Shown here one piece after another: positions 29,027 through 38,605 of a DNA stretch of 64,000 bases (its first letter is position 1; each line of letters starts with the position of its first letter). Source of the stretch: a virus. Its lineage: Duplodnaviria > Caudoviricetes. The notes beneath the pieces are model-generated. The model was not told where the DNA came from, ran no database searches, and was given only the letters and a program-made list of their open reading frames with translations. Position numbers and translations under genes: made by a program. Location: positions 1 through 64,000 of IMG/VR virus record IMGVR_UViG_3300032030_002802. One strand, given 5' to 3'.

Positions 29027-29149
29027 TCACTTCGCCGGCTGCGCGTTCACCTTGGCCAGTCCGAGCTTTTTGGCCTCGTCGGGGCTGTTGGCGTGGACTA
29101 CGACCTCGCGTGTCTGCTTCTTCGTGACCTTGACTATGTATTTCTGCAT
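29027..29149 (-). CDS. Small protein (40 aa)
   Basis: MQKYIVKV..VHANSPDEAKKL; resembles 36654-36848. Confidence 0.55.
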   Translation of the reverse strand: MQKYIVKVTKKQTREVVVHANSPDEAKKLGLAKVNAQPAK

Positions 29150-29320
29150 CGTCTGTACTCTTTTGGTTTCTGTTCCGGCGGCGCGGCTCGTTCCCGGGCT
29201 GGTTGCTTGGCCGTCGCTTAGATCGCGTGCGGGCACGTGAGTCCGAAGGGGGCGTTCGCCGCCTTCACGACTCTGGCTGCCCGCGCAGAGTGCTTCGCCC
29301 GGTCATCGGCCCGCCGGCCG
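29150..29320 (-). ncRNA. RT-associated hairpin array 1 (1 unit)
   Basis: TAGAT at 29219, hairpin to 29286, GTG-N10-TCAT (+ strand reading). Confidence 0.7.
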
Positions 29321-29839
29321 CTACTGGTCCCCGTCGTACGTGGAGCGGACGTAGTAGCGCCTCACGTCCGGCAGGTCCTCGTCCTGTATGTTGCGCAGCC
29401 AGTTGGATATCGGCGTGCATTCGCCGGACGCCTCCAGGATGTAGATCCCGTCGAACTCGTATGCCTGCCTTATGCGGTATATCGCGTCCGACATCTTCGG
29501 GTTCCTGGAGGAGAAGTTCGCCAGGGTCATGTCGGCGGCCAGCTTCGCCGCCACTTCCCGCATCTCGTTGAAGTACGGCCTGAACAGCGGCTCGAGCCGG
29601 TGCGTGTCGATCTCGAGCCACTCCATGTTTCTGCCATCCTCCGCCGCAGTGCCGTGCCGGACCACCGCCGGCCCGAGCCAGTCCACCAGGGTCCTGATGT
29701 CGTCTTGCCTGTCGTAGCCGAAGTGCTCTGTCACCCCGTCCGGGAACTTGTCCTCGTTCTGCGCGAAGACCTCGTCCTCCGTGTGGGTGCAGTACGACGG
29801 CCTTCCGTCCAGCGACAGCTCCAGTATCGTTACGTGCAT
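29321..29839 (-). CDS. Hypothetical protein between arrays
   Basis: 172 aa, strong RBS. Confidence 0.75.
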   Translation of the reverse strand: MHVTILELSLDGRPSYCTHTEDEVFAQNEDKFPDGVTEHFGYDRQDDIRTLVDWLGPAVVRHGTAAEDGRNMEWLEIDTHRLEPLFRPYFNEMREVAAKLAADMTLANFSSRNPKMSDAIYRIRQAYEFDGIYILEASGECTPISNWLRNIQDEDLPDVRRYYVRSTYDGDQ

Positions 29840-29869
29840 TTCTCCTTAGCCTCCTTGTCTGTTGTTGGT

Positions 29870-30333
29870 TGTCGGTTGTCCGCCGTTCCCGGGGTGTTGC
29901 CCTGGAATCCGTCAGATTGTGCCCAGTGGGGGCACATACCGCGGCTGGTCGGTAGGGAGCAGCCGCGGTAGGCGACCACTGGGCAATGCCCTGCCCGGTC
30001 ATCGGCGGACGCCGTTGCCGTTGTCGTTGCTCGGATTGCGCGCCGGCTCGTTTACCGTCTTGCAGATGGCCGACCGGAGCGGCACAGGGTCATGTACCCT
30101 GTTGGGGACATGCCCCACCCGGTACCGCGCCGGTCGGGCTGGTGCGCGCGCCCTTCCGCGTCCTCCCGTGCCCGCCGCGTTCCGCGCCTGTGTTGCGTGG
30201 ACTGTGCAGATCGCCATTCGAGCGGCAGACAAGAGCCGAGTCCGCCGGGCGAGCGCGGCTACGCCGGACTCGGTCCTGTGCTGCTCGAATTGCGTGCATT
30301 GCCGCGTCATCGCGGCGGGCGCCGGGTCCGCCG
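29870..30333 (-). ncRNA. RT-associated hairpin array 2 (3 units)
   Basis: CAGAT at 29913, 30063, 30207, each followed by a long hairpin. Confidence 0.8.
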
Positions 30334-31641
30334 TCAGCGGCGGCGGAGCGACCTGAGGAACTTGGCGATGTCGAAGCGGGACGCCTCGATCGACTTCTTC
30401 AGGATCGCGTGGATGACGTACGCCGGCGTGTCGGTGTCGAGCAGCGCGCGGAGCTTGTTGAGCCCCTCGCGCGCGCCTCCGGCCATCTCCTGCGTGCGGT
30501 TGCGCCAGTTGCCGCCCTCGGTGGTGTAGCGCACGTGGCAGTTGACCACGAGGCTCTTGAGGGTGTAGTAGGCGCCCTGGCGCTTGAACGCCTCCTTCCA
30601 GGCCTTCGGGAGCCAGAAGCGGGTGCAGCCGTCCTGGTCGCGGAAGGTGCCCATGCTCACGCTGGGCAGGGAGTTGCGCAGGATGTCGAGCGCGTCGGCG
30701 TAGGTCTTGCAGCGGCGGACGCGCTTCTCGGCCTCGGCGATGGTGCGGTTGAGGCTGACGAGCCAGTTGGTGGGGCTGATCTCCGTGCGCTCGAACTCGG
30801 CGCCGTCGTCGCCGGAGCCGGAGGTGTGCTTCTGCTTCCAGAGCTCGACGCGGCCCTCGCCCTGGATCTTGCGCCAGTAGACCCCGGTGCGGGAGTTGAA
30901 GGTGCACTTAGCGCGGTCGTTGACGTTGTTCCTGAGCCCCTCGAGGTACTGCGTGAAGATCTCGCAGATCTTGGGGACGGTGAGGAACTTGCTGCGTTCG
31001 AGGAACGCGGTGTGCCAGTGCGTCCGCATGAACTCGAGCTTCTCGATCTCGGTGTCGAGGAGGCGGAAGCAGTCGCGGAGGCTGTAGCGGCGGGCGATGG
31101 CGGCGTCGACGTTGCCGTCGTGCGCGAGCATGAGCCCGAGGTACTGCGCCGGCAGGAAGCGGCGGCTGGTGTAGGGCGTCCACACCTCGCCGTTCTGCAG
31201 TACCGCGTTGTACCACTTGGACGTGACGGCGATCTTGGGGTCGCCGCCGTCGCGCACGCCGGCGCACGTGCGGCGGCTGATGCGGTCCTCGTCGGTGGCC
31301 ATGCGGCCGGTGATCTCGATTCCGGCGTCGGCGTCGCCATAGTCGGGCGAAAGTCCGTCGCACCCGCCGTTGACGCGGCGTCCGTTGCGGAAGCGCTTGG
31401 TGTTCCCGTCGCCTGCCACGCTCCCGTCGTCCGCGGCGTGGCCGGCCATCACGGTCGGGACGTCGCCGATGGCGCACGGGCGCACGACGGACTTCACGAC
31501 CTTCGCGATGCTCTTCTCGGCCTCGCCGGTGTCGAGGTTGGCCGCCACCGCGTCGATGATGTCTCCGATGGTGAAGTCGGAGGTGCTCGTGATCTTCGTT
31601 CCGGGGTTGATCTTTGGTTTTGCCATATCAGTGTCTCTCAT
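30334..31641 (-). CDS. Hypothetical protein (~435 aa), candidate RT-system partner A
   Basis: ATGA-coupled to the upstream gene (alternative start 31626); RRFLPAQY, WKEAFKRQGAYYTLKSLV. Confidence 0.8.
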   Translation of the reverse strand: MRDTDMAKPKINPGTKITSTSDFTIGDIIDAVAANLDTGEAEKSIAKVVKSVVRPCAIGDVPTVMAGHAADDGSVAGDGNTKRFRNGRRVNGGCDGLSPDYGDADAGIEITGRMATDEDRISRRTCAGVRDGGDPKIAVTSKWYNAVLQNGEVWTPYTSRRFLPAQYLGLMLAHDGNVDAAIARRYSLRDCFRLLDTEIEKLEFMRTHWHTAFLERSKFLTVPKICEIFTQYLEGLRNNVNDRAKCTFNSRTGVYWRKIQGEGRVELWKQKHTSGSGDDGAEFERTEISPTNWLVSLNRTIAEAEKRVRRCKTYADALDILRNSLPSVSMGTFRDQDGCTRFWLPKAWKEAFKRQGAYYTLKSLVVNCHVRYTTEGGNWRNRTQEMAGGAREGLNKLRALLDTDTPAYVIHAILKKSIEASRFDIAKFLRSLRRR

Positions 31642-32585
31642 TTGTTGGTTTGACTCTTCTTGCTGTTGCCTGTGTCCGGCTGCGCATTGCGCACGCGCCC
31701 GGTGTCGATGTACTCCACCAGCCTGTTTATCTCGCATATGGTCGGGTCGAGGTCGTAGCACTTCGCCCTCATCTGGAGTTTGAACGCCTCCTGCGCCAGG
31801 GACTTCGCGAGCCTGGCGAGGTTGGGCGCGACCTGCATCGCGCGTGCGTCGGAAGCGCACACGCCGGACGGAATCCGGGCCCGCACGCCGCCGTCTGCCG
31901 CGACCACCACCTGCTCGGGCCCGATCGTCTTCAGCCCGGGCAGGGGCAGCACGGCGCGGCGCCACCAGTCTGTCTTGATCACCAGCTGCCTGTCCGCGTC
32001 GGCGTTGGTTGCGGCCGCCGGCGCCCACCACCAGCTGTCCGGGATCCAGTTTGCCTGCGACGTCACGTACTTCTCCAGCGTTCCGTCCAGCGCGGCGCAG
32101 AGTATCCACGCCTCGAGGCGCACGCGTGCCTCGCCCCGGGGCATCCCCTGCGCTATCTCGTCGTCCGTCATCTCGTCCACGTCCTTGGCCGGGAAGTTGC
32201 TGGCCATGTACCTCTCGGCCCCGTTCGGGCGGGACAGGTAGTGCTCGCGGAACAGGTCGACCGGGTCCAGCCCCTGCTCGTACTCGGTGAGCCACGGCAG
32301 TCCCGCGATGTCCACCTTCACGGTGGCCGTCTCCAGCGTCGGCACCTTGACCTCGCCGTTGCCTATTATGAACACATGCCCGACGAACGCGGAGTGCGCG
32401 GTGAGGTCGAACTTCACCATGTCGGCGTGGCGGCCGTTCGTCCTGTACAGCTTCCCGTGGGTCTTGGCGACCTCCACGAGCCCGGAGTACACCGAGTCCA
32501 CGTGGATTTTCCTCTGTTCCGGCTTCGGCTCGGCCATCTCGTCGGACAGCACGGCCGTGTCTTGCGGGTCTTGCTCTTCTTCCAT
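31638..32585 (-). CDS. Hypothetical protein (315 aa), candidate RT-system partner B
   Basis: AGGAG RBS; HYLSRP..RGEARVRLE..WWW..QLVIKTDWW. Confidence 0.8.
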   Translation of the reverse strand: MEEEQDPQDTAVLSDEMAEPKPEQRKIHVDSVYSGLVEVAKTHGKLYRTNGRHADMVKFDLTAHSAFVGHVFIIGNGEVKVPTLETATVKVDIAGLPWLTEYEQGLDPVDLFREHYLSRPNGAERYMASNFPAKDVDEMTDDEIAQGMPRGEARVRLEAWILCAALDGTLEKYVTSQANWIPDSWWWAPAAATNADADRQLVIKTDWWRRAVLPLPGLKTIGPEQVVVAADGGVRARIPSGVCASDARAMQVAPNLARLAKSLAQEAFKLQMRAKCYDLDPTICEINRLVEYIDTGRVRNAQPDTGNSKKSQTNK

Positions 32586-32609
32586 TTCGGTTCTCCTTTG
32601 GTTTGTCCC

Positions 32610-33318
32610 ATTAGGTAGGCGGCCTGTTGGTTTGGCATTGGTCAGATTGAGACCTGGTAGAGGCCTCGGGCTGTGGGTAGACAGCTGGGCCGAAACCAGG
32701 TCGAATGTCAGAGTCCGCCCTTCCTGGGTGTATGTCCGGCGTCCGGGTGTGTCCGGCGGGGTCTCCCGCGGAATGTGCGTCGTGTCGCAGATTGACAGCT
32801 GAGAATGAGGCGACCGAGAGGATGGAGACCTCGACGGACGAGCGGTCGCCTTATTCCAGCTGAATGCAGTACGGGGTCCTCCCGCCGGCCTGTCTCGTCC
32901 CGCACCGGTTTCCGGCCCTGTTTACGCAGCAGTGCGCAGATGCGCAGCGTGCTTGCCAGATCGGCGATCCTTCACGTGTCGGATCACCGATCTGGTGTGC
33001 ACGCCACGGTGGTCAGGCCGTCATGCCGGGAAGTCGTGCGCTTCCGCCGTTGTGGCTTCAGGAGCCCATAGATTGTGCGAGCCCCGTCCAGGGACATCGG
33101 ATGTGGATTGGCCCGGGCCATCCGATGTCACGGACAGTGCTCGTACGATGTACCTGGGCGTCATGCGCGTGTAGGCCGGGCTGCGCTTCGCCGCCTGTGT
33201 ACGGTCTATTGGTCAGATCCGGCTGGCCGAACCACGTGGTGTACCCGGCATGGGTAGACCGGGTGTACCACGTGGGGAGGCGCAGCCGTGTTCCAGCGGC
33301 ATCATGGCACAGTCTCGC
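32610..33318 (-). ncRNA. RT-associated hairpin array 3 (5 units)
   Basis: YAGAT at 32643, 32788, 32937, 33069, 33214, each followed by a hairpin. Confidence 0.85.
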
Positions 33319-33603
33319 CTATTTCTTCCTGCCGGCCAGCGTCTTCCGCAGCAGCCGTTCGGCCCGCTGCATCGCGTATCTCCTCGCCCCTGGGCAGTTG
33401 CAGCCGCCGCTGAACCAGTGGCACTCGTACGGCGACACGAGCCCGGCCGAGTTCAGCGGCCTGTACCACTTGCACGCCTGGACGGTGAACCCGTCCTTCA
33501 CGCAGCCGTACGTCAGCCGCACGTCGTCCTCGCCGAACGCCTCGGGCGACACCTCAAGCGTCACCGTGCATAAGTTCATCCTGTTGTCGGTCGCCATCTC
33601 CAT
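33319..33603 (-). CDS. Small hypothetical protein
   Basis: MEMATDN..., coupled downstream of the RT. Confidence 0.6.
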   Translation of the reverse strand: MEMATDNRMNLCTVTLEVSPEAFGEDDVRLTYGCVKDGFTVQACKWYRPLNSAGLVSPYECHWFSGGCNCPGARRYAMQRAERLLRKTLAGRKK

Positions 33604-33791
33604 CAGTCCTTTCTCATGAGGTAGCAGCTGTGTATCGCGTCCTGCACCTTGGATATCGCCTGGTTCACGTACATGAATGCGGTAGCGGACCCCTCCACGC
33701 CGCATATGGACCGGCCTATCTCCTCCAGCCCGCGCTCTGCGCCGCGTAGGGACTCCTCGGCCCGCGCGACCGTGTCGCCGGTCTCGCTCAT
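33603..33791 (-). CDS. Small helical protein
   Basis: MSETGD..., ATGA overlap with the RT stop, GGAGG RBS. Confidence 0.6.
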   Translation of the reverse strand: MSETGDTVARAEESLRGAERGLEEIGRSICGVEGSATAFMYVNQAISKVQDAIHSCYLMRKD

Positions 33792-35077
33792 GCGGTCACC
33801 TCCATCATCTCCGCCGTGTACACGCTCGGGCCGCACCGTGAGGCGCGGTACATCCGCATCAGGCTCTTGTAGCCCATCGTCCTGAGCATGTCGTCCGACG
33901 TCAGCGCCTTTGCCTTGCGGTGCTGGGTCTGCCGTCCGACGTACACGCCCTTGATGTGCTCCCTGATGTACTGGTCCAGCCTGCGCACCCGCGTCGGGTT
34001 GTCGATCACGCTGAAGAAGTAGCGCTCCCAGCCGAAGTTGCGCTGGTCGGCGTAGTGGCCGTCGCGCAGCAGCCAGTTGATCTTCCTGATGGCCTTGACC
34101 TGCTCCTCCCGGCTCTCCTTCGGGATGTACTTGTGCGGCCGGCAGATGCGCCGTATCTTGAGCTTGATGCGGTGGTAGCTCTCCTCGCTCATGTCGACCG
34201 TGCCGTTAGAGATCTCGCAGCCGAGGAACGTGAACGGGTGCGAGCTGTCGACCCGGGTGGTCTTCTTCTCGTTCAGCTTCAGGCCCTTCGCCGCCAGCAT
34301 CTCGCGCAGCGTGTCCAGCGCCTTGTCCGCGTCCGTCCCCAGCACCAGGATGTCGTCCGCGTACCGCAGGTACAGGACGTCCATGGCCGACAGCCGCTCG
34401 TCCACGTCCCTGAGGGCGAGGTTGGCGAGCAGGGTGCCGAGGGCGTTGCCCTGCCTGATCGCCATGTACCGCGGCTCCAGCTCGCCGTTGACGTACACGC
34501 GGTCGTCGTGGAAGTGCTTCCAGACGAGCGCGTCCACGGGGCTGCCGGTGTCCATGCTCTTCAGCGTGGCGTCCAGCGTCTCGCGGTTCACGCTGTCGAA
34601 GTACTTGCTGAGGTCGACCTTCCACCCACGGTCTCCGCGCCTCAGCCTTGGTATGAGGTCGCCGTGCAGGATCCGCTTCACGCCGATCCCGCGTTGGTAC
34701 GACCTGCACGACGGGTGTATCATCCCGCCGTACAGCCTGTTGTAGATCGCGCTCACGACACCGAGCACCAGGCCGTCCAGCGGCTGGCTCGGCGCGTACA
34801 GGGTGCGCACCTCCTTGAACTCCCTGTGCACCGCCTCCTTGTACGAGAGGTAGATGCCGGTAATCTTGTCGAGGTACAGGGTCTTCGGCGGCGACAGCGT
34901 GAAGCGCCCGTCGGCGATGGCCTGAACCAGCGCGGCGCGGCCGACCGTGTCGGCCACCGCCCCGAACGACTCCATGTCGATCCTGCGGCCCTTCTTCCTG
35001 CGGACGCGGTTCATCACGTCCTGCCAGATGGCCGGGTCGCACAGCATCTCCATTTTCTCGTCTTCGTCACTCATCAT
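33788..35077 (-). CDS. Reverse transcriptase (stand-alone, group-II-like), 429 aa
   Basis: RTLYAP..D, SCRSYQRG, KVDLSKYFDSV, IRQGNALG, YLRYADD, GLKLNEKKT, FTFLG, GWERYF; AGGAG RBS. Confidence 0.95.
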   Translation of the reverse strand: MMSDEDEKMEMLCDPAIWQDVMNRVRRKKGRRIDMESFGAVADTVGRAALVQAIADGRFTLSPPKTLYLDKITGIYLSYKEAVHREFKEVRTLYAPSQPLDGLVLGVVSAIYNRLYGGMIHPSCRSYQRGIGVKRILHGDLIPRLRRGDRGWKVDLSKYFDSVNRETLDATLKSMDTGSPVDALVWKHFHDDRVYVNGELEPRYMAIRQGNALGTLLANLALRDVDERLSAMDVLYLRYADDILVLGTDADKALDTLREMLAAKGLKLNEKKTTRVDSSHPFTFLGCEISNGTVDMSEESYHRIKLKIRRICRPHKYIPKESREEQVKAIRKINWLLRDGHYADQRNFGWERYFFSVIDNPTRVRRLDQYIREHIKGVYVGRQTQHRKAKALTSDDMLRTMGYKSLMRMYRASRCGPSVYTAEMMEVTA

Positions 35078-35099
35078 TGTCTGTTCTCCTTTTGTTGTT

Positions 35100-35995
35100 G
35101 TCCCGCCCTTCCGCGCCTGTGTGTGCGTTGTCGTGCAGATCGCCGTCGAGGCAGGATACCGTCGGGATCGGCATGGCCGATGCGACGGTATCTCGGGGGT
35201 CGACGGAGTGTCTCGGCGCGTCATGGGCGTACCCGCGTGCGCGCCTTCGGCATCGGCTATTCCGCCATGTGGCAGATCGGCCGCGGGCGAATCGGAGTCG
35301 CAGCGCCGGCGCGTGCTAGCGCGTGGGCGCAGCCATCCCCGTTTCGCCGCGGCTGTGCGTTGAATGCCTCCTGGCCCGCGTCCTGCATGTCCTGCGTGTC
35401 CGGCCGTGCGGCAGTGCGGCCTTCGGCACCCGTCCGTCAGGTGGCGGGTCAGATCCGTGTCGCATTAGGAGATGATGCGCATTCGTGCAGTCAGAGAATG
35501 CGCGTCATCTCCGTAACGACACAAAGGTGTCATGGTGTGCCTCGTGGCCTGCCCGGTCCTTCGGCGCGCGTCCCTTCGTCATAATGCAGATCGGAGGCAG
35601 CATTAAGCAGGTGATCACAGGGCGGTCGCAGTGTGATCACCTGCGTATGCTGCCGCGCGTGCAGGTGCGCCTCGTGGACTGGGTTCGGGGAATGGCCGGC
35701 GTCGGGGACGGTTCGTGCCATGTGGCTCAGATCGAACCCGGTGAAGGCGATCTTCGGCCAGGATGCTAGTCCTGGGCTAAGATCGCGTGAACCGGGTGAG
35801 TGGGCGGCCCCTCCTGCCGGCCTGGTCGGGCTGGGTTGGACGGCGCTTCCGCCGCCGTCTGCTGCTGGTCCCTTAGATTTGGCCGGATCCTTGGGCTCTG
35901 TCGGAGACGAACGGTCAGGTCGTATCCGTCGAGCTCCAAGGATCCGGGCGTGGATCGCGGCGTCGTGCGTCCGTGCGTCCGTGCATACGCCCGCG
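35100..35995 (-). ncRNA. RT-associated hairpin array 4 (6 units), directly upstream of the RT
   Basis: YAGAT at 35136, 35273, 35450, 35587, 35728, 35874, each followed by a hairpin. Confidence 0.88.
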
Positions 35996-36652
35996 TCAGG
36001 TGTGCGTGGACCAGCTCCCGTACGGTGCGCGTTCGCCGCTTGGCAGGTAGTCGGCGTGGTAGATTATGCCGCCACACAGGCCGGGCCGGCGCGACATCGC
36101 CTCGCGCACGGCCGTGTCTGGCTGCGTTGCGGCCTTCATGGCCGTGTCGGCCTGGAACGTCCGCGAGACCCCCTCCTGTCCGAGCATGTCCGGGAGTTCG
36201 CTCTCGTCGAAGCCGTCCACCACCTCCTGCGTACGGCCGTCCCTGAAGATGTACCAGCACCGGTCGTAGATGTCCACGCGCTCGCGGGTGTACGGGTCGA
36301 TCCACTCCTCCCTGAAGAAGAACGAGTGCTGCGCCATGTCGGCGAACACGAACGTCTCGCGCACCGGCAGCCGGTCCTTCCAGTCGTGCGCCGTGTGGGT
36401 CTGCCCGTCCTGGAGGCGTATCTCCGACCCTTCCGGGAAGAACGGGCTCCTGTTGTCGATGGCGTCGGCGTTGGCCCTGTACCCGAAGCACGCGAGCAGC
36501 GTCCTCGCGGCCTGTCCGCGCTTTTCCTCCAGCTTTCTCAGCTCGGGGGCTTCGGTCAGTTTTGCGTTCCGGATGGCCGCGTCGAGCATCAGGTCCGCGT
36601 TTATCGCGAACTGCACGGCGGCGTGGAACTGCTCTGGGCATGTTATCGTCAT
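35996..36652 (-). CDS. Hypothetical protein between arrays
   Basis: 218 aa; DMAQHSFFF..CGGIIYH..WSTHT (recalled resemblance to DUF4120-like proteins, unverified). Confidence 0.75.
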   Translation of the reverse strand: MTITCPEQFHAAVQFAINADLMLDAAIRNAKLTEAPELRKLEEKRGQAARTLLACFGYRANADAIDNRSPFFPEGSEIRLQDGQTHTAHDWKDRLPVRETFVFADMAQHSFFFREEWIDPYTRERVDIYDRCWYIFRDGRTQEVVDGFDESELPDMLGQEGVSRTFQADTAMKAATQPDTAVREAMSRRPGLCGGIIYHADYLPSGERAPYGSWSTHT

Positions 36653-36653
36653 G

Positions 36654-36848
36654 TCAGTAGTCCGTTAGGGTTTGCGTCTCGTCGTCCGTCGCGTTCACCG
36701 GCTTCACGCCGATCAGCTCCAGCTTTGACAGGTCGGCGTTCTTGAACGCCTCCTCCGCCTGCTTGAACGCCTCCTGGGGCGTCTCGGCCAGGACGGCCAC
36801 GTCTATCCGCCCGTCAACGGCCAGGCTCACCGTGAATGTCTTGTTCAT
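36654..36848 (-). CDS. Small hypothetical protein
   Basis: MNKTFTV..VLAETPQEA; GAGGAG RBS. Confidence 0.7.
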   Translation of the reverse strand: MNKTFTVSLAVDGRIDVAVLAETPQEAFKQAEEAFKNADLSKLELIGVKPVNATDDETQTLTDY

Positions 36849-36869
36849 GTCTCTCCTCGGTTTTGTTGT

Positions 36870-37646
36870 TGTCGTGGGTTCCCGGTCCTGTTCATTCCGC
36901 CGTTCGTCAGATTCTGACGGCAGGTCGCCGCTTTGGTGGGCGCGGCCCTGGGGGAGCTCCGCAGCGCAGGTCACGGAGCGGAGGTGCTCCTCCTCGGGCC
37001 GCGCAGGGCGGCTGCCTGCCGGCTGATGGAATGCCGGTCATCCCTTTTGTTGTAGTTGTCTGGCTTCCGCGCTGTTGTTCTGTCTGTGTCGCAGATGGAG
37101 GATCAGCGAAGCGATGCCACGCCTCCTGAAGTCCCACGGAGGTGAGGCATCGCTGCCTGATCCGAATGCGGCGTGCGCGTACTGCCTTTTCCTGGTCGTG
37201 TTCGGCAGGCTCGGGCGGCTGTCTTTTCGCGGTTGGTCAGATCGCAAGGCAGGCTGAGGCTGAGCGGCGGTCGTAGCTAAACGATTTCGCGGCTCGCCGA
37301 GGCCTGCCTGGGGTGCATTCTCCGCCGCACGCCCGCCTCGGCTTTGTGCGCTTCTTTCGGGTTCCGCACCAGTGTCCTCTCGGTTAGGCAGATCGCGTCG
37401 TCGGCAGATCCAGAAGCCTCCGAGGTCGTCGGATGGCCTCTGGATCGCAGGGCGACGCACTGGATGGGTGCGTCTTCCCGGCGGCTTGGGCGCCTGTGTG
37501 TCGTTGATCCGCTAGATCGTCTGTCTTCTGAGTCGGTTCTCGAGACCTGCGGTCGCAGGTCGTGCGCGCGAATCGAGGAAGAAATACGGACGTGGAGCCA
37601 GCGCCTCATGCCGCGTCGCGCGCCGTCACGTCGTCACGCCGCCGCG
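36870..37646 (-). ncRNA. RT-associated hairpin array 5 (5 units)
   Basis: YAGAT at 36908, 37092, 37238, 37389, 37513, each followed by a hairpin. Confidence 0.85.
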
Positions 37647-38306
37647 TCACCTGTGCAGGTCCATCACCACGTCGCCGGTCCCGAAGGCGCACTTGAACCC
37701 GCATCTCGGGCAGTCGCCGATGCACTTCGTCGCGTCCTTGGGCACGCGCCTGTCGGACCCGTCCTGCACCCAGCAGTTCCGCTTCACGTTCCTCTGGCGG
37801 GGCGGTGGCATGCGCGGCCACTGCGAGCGGAGCACGCGCAGGTTGTCCGGCAGCGAGGCGTGGTCGAGCCCGTCCATCTTCGAGTAGCCGTAGAACACGG
37901 TGCCGGGGTGGTCGCCGGCTATCCGCCTCCACATGTCCAGGTACTCCCGCGAGTAGAAGTCCCCAGCGACGTGGAGCCGCATCACCCGCGGCAGCGCCAT
38001 GTACAGGAACTTCCGGATGAGCAGCTCGGCGAGCGTCGGGTAGTTCTCCAGCATCCACAGGTTGTGGGTCCACATGTCCCACACGTTCGGGAACATGTCG
38101 CGTATCCGGTTGTTGTAGCAGCTCTTCGCGCAGTACCCGCGCAGCCTGGGGTTGCACGTCTTGACGTGGGGGATGCTCCACGACGGTATGTAGCCGATCT
38201 TGCGGTTGCCGGTGCCGATAGAGACGTACAGCTCGGGGCTGGCCGTGCCGACGATCTCTACGCCTTCCGCCCCGTCCACGTCCTCCGGGTCGATCCCCAC
38301 CTTCAT
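37647..38306 (-). CDS. GP88-like (radical-SAM-like) phage protein
   Basis: GNRKIG..KTC..CAKSCY..RLHVAGDFY..FYGYSK..CIGDCPRC. Confidence 0.75.
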   Translation of the reverse strand: MKVGIDPEDVDGAEGVEIVGTASPELYVSIGTGNRKIGYIPSWSIPHVKTCNPRLRGYCAKSCYNNRIRDMFPNVWDMWTHNLWMLENYPTLAELLIRKFLYMALPRVMRLHVAGDFYSREYLDMWRRIAGDHPGTVFYGYSKMDGLDHASLPDNLRVLRSQWPRMPPPRQRNVKRNCWVQDGSDRRVPKDATKCIGDCPRCGFKCAFGTGDVVMDLHR

Positions 38307-38605
38307 GCCAGCACCTCCTTCCAGGTGTCCGTCACGTCGATGGTCCGCACGGTCTTGTACCGCTTCTCGTTCTCCCTGCGCGCCTTCAGCGTCTCCTGCC
38401 ACTCGTCGTCGCCGATCCCGTAGTATTCCTGCTCCTCGCCGAGGACGTCGAGCGCCGCGTCGAACAGGACGCAGTCCATGTAGGAGATCGCCTCCCCCCG
38501 CGCGCTCATGTCGACGAACCTCTTCTTGACCTGCCCGGCGGCCTCCCTGGACATCGTGTACTTGACCAGCGTGTCCATGGTCTCGATGTTCGACCCCGCG
38601 GTCAT
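38303..38605 (-). CDS. Hypothetical protein
   Basis: Coupled ORF. Confidence 0.65.
   Translation of the reverse strand: MTAGSNIETMDTLVKYTMSREAAGQVKKRFVDMSARGEAISYMDCVLFDAALDVLGEEQEYYGIGDDEWQETLKARRENEKRYKTVRTIDVTDTWKEVLA

Follow-up and report, generated by a model that had tools for sequence, protein, structure and literature searches.

The first 64,000 nucleotides (hereafter the window; GC content ~65%) of the virus record IMGVR_UViG_3300032030_002802 carry, at 29189-37604, an 8.4-kb module in which 20 non-coding RNA (ncRNA) units are interleaved with the genes of a UG27-type reverse transcriptase (RT) and its two accessory proteins and with about five further open reading frames (ORFs). 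The units lie in five intergenic arrays of 1, 3, 5, 6, and 5 units and share a single orientation, which is that of the genes; the minus strand carries all genes examined here. The genome, which originates from ruminant gut samples, is one contig of 199,078 bp, of which the window is the beginning. Because this contig encodes phage families (GP88, an exonuclease VIII-like protein, and a UvsX-like recombinase) and the relatives of the locus are found on phage-like metagenomic contigs, the UG27-type locus is phage-borne.

UG27 RTs belong to the class 2 UG/Abi RTs and form a group with two accessory proteins (Mestre et al., 2022; PMC9226505). UG27 loci contain arrays of sequence-diverse, structurally conserved ncRNA units of ~135, 149, and 167 nt, each forming a main hairpin with an asymmetric internal loop that brackets a central stem; the 149- and 167-nt classes have an extra basal hairpin and a pseudoknot, while the ~135-nt class is without the pseudoknot ("Minerva" preprint, September 2026; doi 10.64898/2026.09.22.753630). 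For five UG27 systems in Escherichia coli, the RT and both accessory proteins were required for the production of single-stranded DNAs (ssDNAs) of 50-100 nt, mapping to the central hairpins with their start at the AUC of AUC-N7-UANAG and their end beyond UUYA on the opposite side; the biological role of this complementary DNA (cDNA) was stated to be unknown ("Minerva" preprint).

The features of the module are listed below. Units are named after the + strand position of their YAGAT motif; R2 is the second covariance model described below, P2 is the central hairpin, and P0 and P1 are the basal helices.

29189..29313 (-): unit 29219, array 1; R2 64.7 bits; P2 29225-29286; P1 CCGGGC/GCCCGG
29324..29839 (-): ORF of 172 aa between arrays 1 and 2; no family match
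29874..30015 (-): unit 29913, array 2; R2 78.7 bits; P2 29918-29985
30025..30166 (-): unit 30063, array 2; R2 55.9 bits; P2 30069-30138
30167..30323 (-): unit 30207, array 2; R2 81.9 bits; P2 30215-30292
30337..31626 (-): large accessory protein (bORF), 430 aa; PADLOC RTas337, E 9.2e-14
31641..32585 (-): small-accessory-protein homologue (sORF), 315 aa; PADLOC RTas346, E 1.5e-7, residues 110-207
32614..32732 (-): unit 32643, array 3; R2 30.1 bits, outside training set; weight matrix 29 bits
32748..32893 (-): unit 32788, array 3; R2 72.8 bits
32903..33028 (-): unit 32937, array 3; R2 61.8 bits
33029..33177 (-): unit 33069, array 3; R2 80.8 bits
33179..33317 (-): unit 33214, array 3; R2 64.8 bits
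33322..33791 (-): two small ORFs of 94 and 62 aa, directly after the RT; no family match
33791..35074 (-): UG27-type RT, 428 aa; PADLOC RT_UG27, E 3.4e-66; Pfam RVT_1, E 2.6e-19
35096..35237 (-): unit 35136, array 4; seed of model R1
35243..35384 (-): unit 35273, array 4; R2 65.4 bits
35421..35546 (-): unit 35450, array 4; R2 47 bits
35547..35687 (-): unit 35587, array 4; R2 83.7 bits
35688..35828 (-): unit 35728, array 4; R2 89.5 bits
35834..35977 (-): unit 35874, array 4; R2 61.7 bits
35999..36851 (-): two ORFs of 218 and 65 aa between arrays 4 and 5; no family match
36867..37053 (-): unit 36908, array 5, longest hairpin (104 nt); R2 21.9 bits, outside training set
37054..37196 (-): unit 37092, array 5; R2 82.2 bits
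37199..37343 (-): unit 37238, array 5; R2 66.5 bits
37349..37489 (-): unit 37389, array 5; R2 86.5 bits
37490..37604 (-): unit 37513, array 5, weakest by covariance model; R2 10.5 bits, E 0.76

The reverse transcriptase and its accessory proteins

The RT matched 77 PADLOC profiles, the best of which was RT_UG27 (221.9 bits, profile positions 2-358 of 420), followed by UG26 (2.9e-47); the UG17, Drt9, Drt3a, and Cas-associated RT profiles were also lower, with 7.1e-23 for Drt9 and 2.9e-12 for Drt2 among the other class 2 profiles. The match is a divergent one, the canonical RT of the Bacteroides phage BS-TP1 scoring 755 bits on RT_UG27. The catalytic region is kept, as seen from the RVT_1 match and from the invariant Y238-x-D240-D241 (YADD box) in the RT alignment. 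Two other kinds of RT were considered and rejected: a retron RT (NCBIfam retron_St85_RT, 53 bits against a cut-off of 235; none among the best 25 of the 77 PADLOC matches) and a group II intron RT (TIGR04416, 85 bits against a cut-off of 300; no Rfam intron family in the window). The protein was also far below the cut-offs of the curated Drt2, Drt3a, and Drt4 models.

The two accessory genes are adjacent to each other and lie downstream of array 3. RTas337 and RTas346, the profiles that they match, represent the two protein clusters that accompany UG27 RTs on gut phages (Mestre et al., 2022), and the orthologues of both proteins on the related contig L002 match the same profiles (1.3e-15 and 1e-8, respectively). 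Both proteins are larger than usual, with 315 aa versus ~147 for sORF and 430 aa versus ~316-365 for bORF. Since residues 110-207 of the sORF homologue alone match the 147-position RTas346 profile, this protein has N- and C-terminal extensions, which are absent in the Bacteroides phage versions. On the same UG27 profiles, the RT, small, and large accessory proteins gave 4e-228, 1.8e-57, and 1.2e-130 for phage BS-TP1, and 2.7e-86, 1.3e-20, and 3e-30 for L006, a metagenomic contig of 37% GC whose RT is 45% identical. On the evidence of this graded series of profile matches, the divergent locus is linked to the canonical UG27 loci. Canonical loci encode three proteins, and the five ORFs of 94, 62, 218, 65, and 172 aa between the arrays, for which no family match was found, could be added components of this UG27 branch.

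The common grammar of the units

The RNA sense was taken to be that of the genes (minus strand), so that YAGAT of the + strand reads AUCUR and RTG reads CAY. A sequence-only reading of this DNA had described, on the + strand, a succession of TTCSGC, YAGAT, a variable hairpin, and RTG-N9-11-TCVT; it had arrived independently at the correct unit grammar of this UG27 ncRNA array, and the letters that it quoted are present at every position concerned. YAGAT followed by a hairpin is found in 20/20 units, the hairpin comprising 54-104 nt and beginning 0-5 nt after YAGAT (+ strand), and RTG-N9-11-TCVT, which had been ascribed to most units, is found in 14/20. The hairpin sequences are all different, no pair among the 20 sharing sequence. 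The units have a median size of 144 nt (124-171). Aligned on YAGAT, as had been proposed, the 20 units show fixed conserved columns in the 5' flank: TT at -27/-26 (17 and 15 of 20 units), C at -25, G at -23, GT at -17/-16, T at -12, and RT at -6/-5. For TTCSGC upstream of YAGAT, the fixed distance was upheld, while the exact form is limited to 9/20 units (TTC, 14/20).

The pattern goes far beyond chance, as seen from the genome-wide counts of the composite motif and the weight-matrix scores. In the 199 kb, TTCSGC-N19-23-YAGAT is matched 10 times on the + strand, nine of these within the 8.4-kb stretch, and once on the other strand. With a weight matrix of the 40-nt 3' segment of the units (22 bits of information), the units score 12-36 bits, the best non-unit site in the 199 kb 17, and the best site on the opposite strand 14.5; in leave-one-out scoring, 18/20 units reach at least 11 bits. 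Position 84600 of the genome (17 bits) gave a further candidate unit, which was rejected as a chance match in apparent coding sequence with no hairpin adjoining. Units 32937 and 37389 each hold a second CAGAT within a stem (at 32957 and 37405, respectively), which does not mark a separate unit. A strict hand-written grammar scanner was dropped, as it found 7/20 units only.

General searches of the window returned little. The tandem-repeat finder and the tRNA scan gave nothing, and no Rfam family, including introns, reached its gathering score in the 64 kb, the only sub-threshold hits (E ≤ 1) being microRNA-like chance matches to two hairpins. The P2 hairpins match the remaining phage genome over 12-15 nt (17-21 nt with mismatches), which is chance level; the hairpins of the published systems are likewise without meaningful similarity to the phage genome ("Minerva" preprint).

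Fold and covariation of the units

Each unit is predicted to fold into a single long hairpin made of P0, a GA-rich internal loop, P1, an asymmetric internal loop, and P2. In the RNA sense, the grammar reads P0 - AnGA - P1 - CA(Y) - central hairpin - AUCUR-N4-AY...AC - P1' - GAA - P0', with CAY at the 5' foot and AUCUR at the 3' foot of P2. The asymmetric loop has a few nucleotides ending in CA(Y) on its 5' side and ~23 nt, AUCUR-N4-AY-N5-A-N3-AC, on its 3' side. P1 has 4-7 bp of unit-specific sequence (CCGGGC, CGGCC, GGCAT, CGCACC, etc.), the letters adjacent to TTC being complementary to those adjacent to TCAT, and P0 has 3-9 bp outside the AnGA/GAA loop. Unit 37513, the weakest by covariance model, has 32 bits by weight matrix and forms both helices (P1 GGCGC/GCGCC, P0 GCGGC/GCCGC).

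This fold revises the earlier picture of four independent linear motifs. TTC and SGC correspond to GAA and the 3' arm of P1 in the RNA, TCVT to the AnGA loop strand beside the 5' arm of P1, and part of the supposed N10 spacer to that 5' arm itself. Because TTCSGC and TCVT thus pair as the strands of the covarying P0/P1 helices, with the AnGA/GAA loop between them, they are structural or protein-binding elements and not priming or termination sites. The idea that the motifs are RT signals placed around a variable hairpin is supported in part: AUCUR and CA(Y) stand, on the RT-sense strand, where the homologous UG27 systems have the start and end of their cDNA, and TTCSGC and TCVT are not linear signals.

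The pairing of the flanks was examined by comparing each unit with itself and with the others. The own-flank pairing averaged -25.7 kcal/mol versus -18.1 across different units, and none of 20000 permutations reached the own-flank value. The same comparison on six other region pairs was flat, which means that the test is not positive by default.

The unit at 35096-35237, with its P0, P1, and P2, served as the single seed of a covariance model (model R1), which recovered a further 16 units (E ≤ 0.6), each on the minus strand. Its successor, model R2, recovered 19/20 window units at E ≤ 0.005 with filters off, two of the 19 being outside its training set, and 81 units at E ≤ 0.01 in the window and seven related contigs, of which 65 are in the contigs. 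All of these are in the RT sense, with no full-length unit on the other strand. Whole-unit alignment by MAFFT misaligned the 5' sides and was replaced by a model-guided alignment. In the model alignment of 18 rows (17 units and a single hairpin match of the + strand), pairing extends to 93.2% of stem cells versus 49.2% in shuffles (0/500 reached the observed value) and 34-39% with slid partners, and both sides change in 34/35 pairs; for the 81 units, pairing is 89.9% versus 46.0% in shuffles and the covariation score 0.839 versus 0.175. Across the alignments, slid partners pair at 33-39% and the covariation score is 0.81-0.84 versus 0.18, figures that are to be read with the bias of a model-fitted alignment towards the model's own structure.

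The unpaired letters are conserved over the 81 units: A-n-G-A at 96/91/89%, CA at 99/98%, AUCU at 100/99/100/91% followed by R, the C preceding the 3' arm of P1 at 93%, and GAA at 84/96/86%. The purine-rich loop between P0 and P1 has 4 nt on one side and 3 nt on the other, generally AUGA/GAA (AGUA/GAA in unit 37092); in unit 35136, its strands lie at 35220-35223 and 35109-35111 (+ coordinates). Its resemblance to loop-E/sarcin-ricin or K-turn-like protein-binding sites suggests that tandem sheared G-A pairs may form here. The loop was not seen in the units of L006 or of L010, a Bacilli metagenome-assembled genome (MAG).

Related contigs and turnover of the hairpins

The RT has many metagenomic homologues, which fall into a close clade with 63-89% identity and further clades with 38-47%. 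Seven close-clade contigs were fetched (L002-L005 and L081-L083; GC 58-63% in the four measured, L002-L005). L002 and L003 share a layout of a GP88-like gene, an array, an ORF of ~216 aa (with a small ORF in L002), an array, the RT, two small ORFs, an array, the small and large accessory genes, an array, and an ORF of 163-170 aa, and the remaining contigs show parts of it. The two small ORFs after the RT are present in L002, L003, and L082, one is present in L083, and none was called in L004, L005, or L081; the ORF of ~216-220 aa was called in L002-L004 and L081-L083, its 65-aa neighbor has a counterpart in L002 only, and the ORF of 163-173 aa after the large accessory gene is found in L002, L003, L005, L082, and L083. 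The weight matrix of the window detected 18, 11, 7, and 6 sites on L002-L005, respectively, in the RT sense only. A scan of 185,579 GTDB species genomes gave no member of the close clade (the best RTs being that of a Bacilli MAG at 47% identity and others at ~30%), and a search of viral contigs with the RT gave no relative.

The content of the arrays turns over unevenly between relatives. L002 (RT gene 82%) has recognizable orthologues of 14/20 units by blastn and is the only contig that keeps most units, whereas L081, whose RT gene is 86% identical in nucleotides, has blastn-detectable similarity to 3/20 units, which indicates that the RT is much slower to change than the central hairpins, which diverge or are replaced. 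The global array identity between relatives was set aside as uninformative, its shuffled baseline being 0.70. In nine unit pairs of the window and L002, 162/200 stem pairs are unchanged, 13 have changed on both sides with pairing kept, and 5 are broken, while 40% of the unpaired letters differ. By this comparison, the fold of the units is under selection.

The stretch 29100-37700, or a close strain of it, is present on contigs from sheep, bovine, and goat gut metagenomes of several studies, and also as contigs in two sheep-gut metatranscriptome libraries. In one bovine run, the strain differs by a few percent (most contigs are 95-99% alike) with small indels inside units. The contigs that bear array 4 have about twice the depth of those beside them, which is not informative on transcription, ends, or cDNA.

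The GP88-family protein encoded next to array 5 (37650-38402, minus strand) is distantly matched by proteins of mycobacteriophages, of a Streptomyces phage, and of a virus ascribed to Methanomassiliicoccales. These matches are too distant for the host to be named, which may be bacterial (Actinomycetota-like) or archaeal; the UvsX-like protein had no match among isolated phages.

Comparison with known UG27 systems and other reverse transcriptases

The locus shares with the published UG27 systems a UG27-group RT, the cluster-337 and cluster-346 proteins, a phage location, arrays of diverse units of ~135-170 nt, a long hairpin with an asymmetric internal loop that brackets the central stem, the feet of which carry an invariant AUC (3') and a short YA-ending motif (5'), and extra units in neighboring intergenic regions. 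The sizes are close as well, the units of 124-171 nt (median 144) and the predicted cDNA of 63-119 nt comparing with published values of 135-167 and 50-100 nt. Unlike in those systems, UANAG is replaced here by N4-AY-N5-A-N3-AC and UUYA by CA(Y), a clade-specific AnGA/GAA loop lies between two basal helices, the pseudoknot and the extra basal hairpin were not detected, and five arrays are interleaved with the three genes and about five ORFs, several of them syntenic in relatives. The genome of ~199 kb, with 65% GC and of ruminant-gut origin, is also unlike those of the published systems, and its clade is not seen as prophages in the GTDB species genomes scanned.

The AUC motif forms a series across the loci compared. 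In two species studied in the preprint, represented by Alistipes putredinis DSM 17216 (L031) and Phocaeicola coprophilus DSM 18228 (L016), ATC-N7-8-TANAG occurs every ~150-180 nt just downstream of the RT, in the RT sense, and the motif recurs in L001. The series runs from AUC-N7-8-UANAG in these three loci through AUCUAAA...UAUAG in L010 (RT 47% identical), whose motif joins the canonical and the clade forms, and AUCUAAA...UAG in L006 to AUCUR-N4-AY in the present clade. The literal ATC-N7-TANAG is not enriched in the window, nor at exact spacing in BS-TP1.

With retrons, the locus would share an RT that makes short ssDNA from a hairpin-forming segment of the structured RNA beside it, and inverted repeats (here P0/P1) that enclose the template. 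It differs from them in that the RT lies outside the retron clade, that there are many units per RT and not one, and that a 5' part resembling msr, with its branching G, was not recognized here, while characterized UG27 systems need two unrelated accessory proteins. With DRT2 and DRT9 (UG2 and UG28), it shares the RT class and, as predicted here, a neighboring structured ncRNA as template; those systems, however, make long concatemeric or homopolymeric cDNA from one ncRNA for host defense, whereas the present locus would, by analogy with its UG27 homologues, be a phage-borne array of short hairpin templates.

Interpretation

Motifs at fixed spacing, covarying helices, three protein families, and a grammar conserved in related phages are all observed at this locus. 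We consider it probable that a UG27 RT system encoded by the phage uses the 20 units as its template RNAs, by analogy, as regards the cDNA, with the five systems characterized elsewhere. We take the units to be transcribed with the genes on the minus strand. The arrays would be transcribed together with the operon, and the RT and both accessory proteins would bind the platform of P0, the loop, and P1 as well as the asymmetric loop, the invariant loop nucleotides and P0/P1 most likely positioning the protein complex on each unit. As in the homologous systems, DNA synthesis would start at AUC, at the 3' foot of P2, and the RT would copy P2 and stop just beyond CA on the 5' side. The output would be about 20 different ssDNA hairpins of 63-119 nt (predicted median 76), with + strand sequence from the G of YAGAT to RTG. 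The sequence-only reading had likewise proposed that the cDNA starts near CAGAT and stops past the hairpin, an expectation that agrees with the products measured in the five homologous UG27 systems.

Several points weigh against this reading. The window units lack UANAG and UUYA in their published form, even though AUC is invariant and correctly placed and CA(Y) occupies the position of UUYA. Neither a pseudoknot nor an extra basal hairpin gave an own-versus-cross pairing signal in the 3' loop, P2, apical loop, or linkers, which is compatible with the published ~135-nt class. The accessory-protein profile matches are weak, the sORF homologue has twice the usual size and matches over ~100 residues, and BLASTP against the accessory proteins of BS-TP1 is marginal. 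Model R2 finds no unit in the Bacteroidota, Bacillota, or low-GC UG27 loci, and the RNA homology thus rests on architecture and the motif series and not on score. The transcribed strand is assigned from gene orientation and homology, the G-U counts being indecisive, and the public-run contigs over the stretch show neither ends nor strand.

Some of these points suit a different view, in which the units are UG27-type structured RNAs that are not reverse-transcribed from AUC to CA and serve as scaffolds or decoys, or have another start, stop, or product. The absence of UANAG and UUYA, the strong divergence of the accessory proteins, and public-run contigs that give no product information would fit it, and other class 2 UG RTs do yield quite different products (doi 10.64898/2026.09.22.753630). 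We nevertheless regard it as unlikely, because the feet of P2 are precisely where AUC (81/81 units) and CA (98-99%) stand, the RT has kept its catalytic region (RVT_1, YADD box), and architecture and sizes agree with the characterized systems.

Punctuation of the operon on the gene strand, by intrinsic terminators, RNase III or other processing sites, or regulators in 5' untranslated regions, is very improbable. Up to six units stand in tandem without an ORF between them, no U-tracts are evident after the hairpins, the grammar is confined to the surroundings of the UG27 genes in the 199-kb genome and the seven related contigs, and neither the invariant loop letters nor the P0/P1 helices are terminator features, even if the hairpins do lie between the genes of one operon-like block and some units directly precede ribosome-binding sites.

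We give equally little credit to small antisense RNAs transcribed from the + strand by promoters of their own. TTCSGC and YAGAT follow each other like -35 and -10 boxes, but the spacer is ~20 nt and not 17, the letters adjacent to TTC covary, as a helix, with letters beyond the hairpin, and the characterized homologous loci have the AUC motif in the RT sense. The + strand folds slightly better in 17/20 hairpins, an advantage that is small (26 G-T versus 15 A-C). This wobble asymmetry of P2 (26 G-T on the + strand versus 15 on the minus strand) is not significant, and that of the basal stems, likewise not significant (Wilcoxon p 0.19), may reflect the base composition of the strands; the asymmetry is thus no evidence as to whether the cDNA or the RNA is the selected fold. 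Least probable of all are REP- or MITE-like mobile palindromic repeats spreading within the region, which would account for numerous palindromic units with conserved flanks but not for hairpins of which no two share sequence, for the absence of units from the other 190 kb of the genome, for the strict co-orientation and the tie to RT genes in every relative, or for the lack of a transposase nearby in the family scans.

Template RNAs of a UG27 RT thus remain our preferred reading of the units. As this kind of system has already been described in the preprint of September 2026, the locus is a divergent further member. Beyond that, the locus and its seven relatives may form an undescribed GC-rich UG27 branch with a distinct unit design, spread arrays, a host outside the four reported phyla, and a fast turnover of the hairpin cargo, a proposal that we hold only tentatively and somewhat doubt. 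In such a branch, which lacks UANAG, the AnGA/GAA loop between two basal helices would replace the basal hairpin and the pseudoknot, and the extra ORFs could be components.

Significance

The kind of system found here is a rediscovery of one already published; the useful additions are the helix-and-loop reading of two of the motifs, the invariant letters over 81 units, and a working model for the clade. This model extends detection to units that are said to escape the published covariance models in several clades, and together with the refined grammar (81 units, 8 genomes) it predicts exactly, in a form open to testing, where the cDNA of 20 products would start and end. UG27 systems occur widely among gut phages; that they produce many short ssDNA hairpins is known, but the purpose of these is not. 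A branch as divergent as this one helps to separate the essential features from those that vary between lineages: AUC and CA at the feet of P2 and an enclosing basal helix are still invariant in it, while UANAG, the pseudoknot, and the GA-rich loop are lineage-specific.

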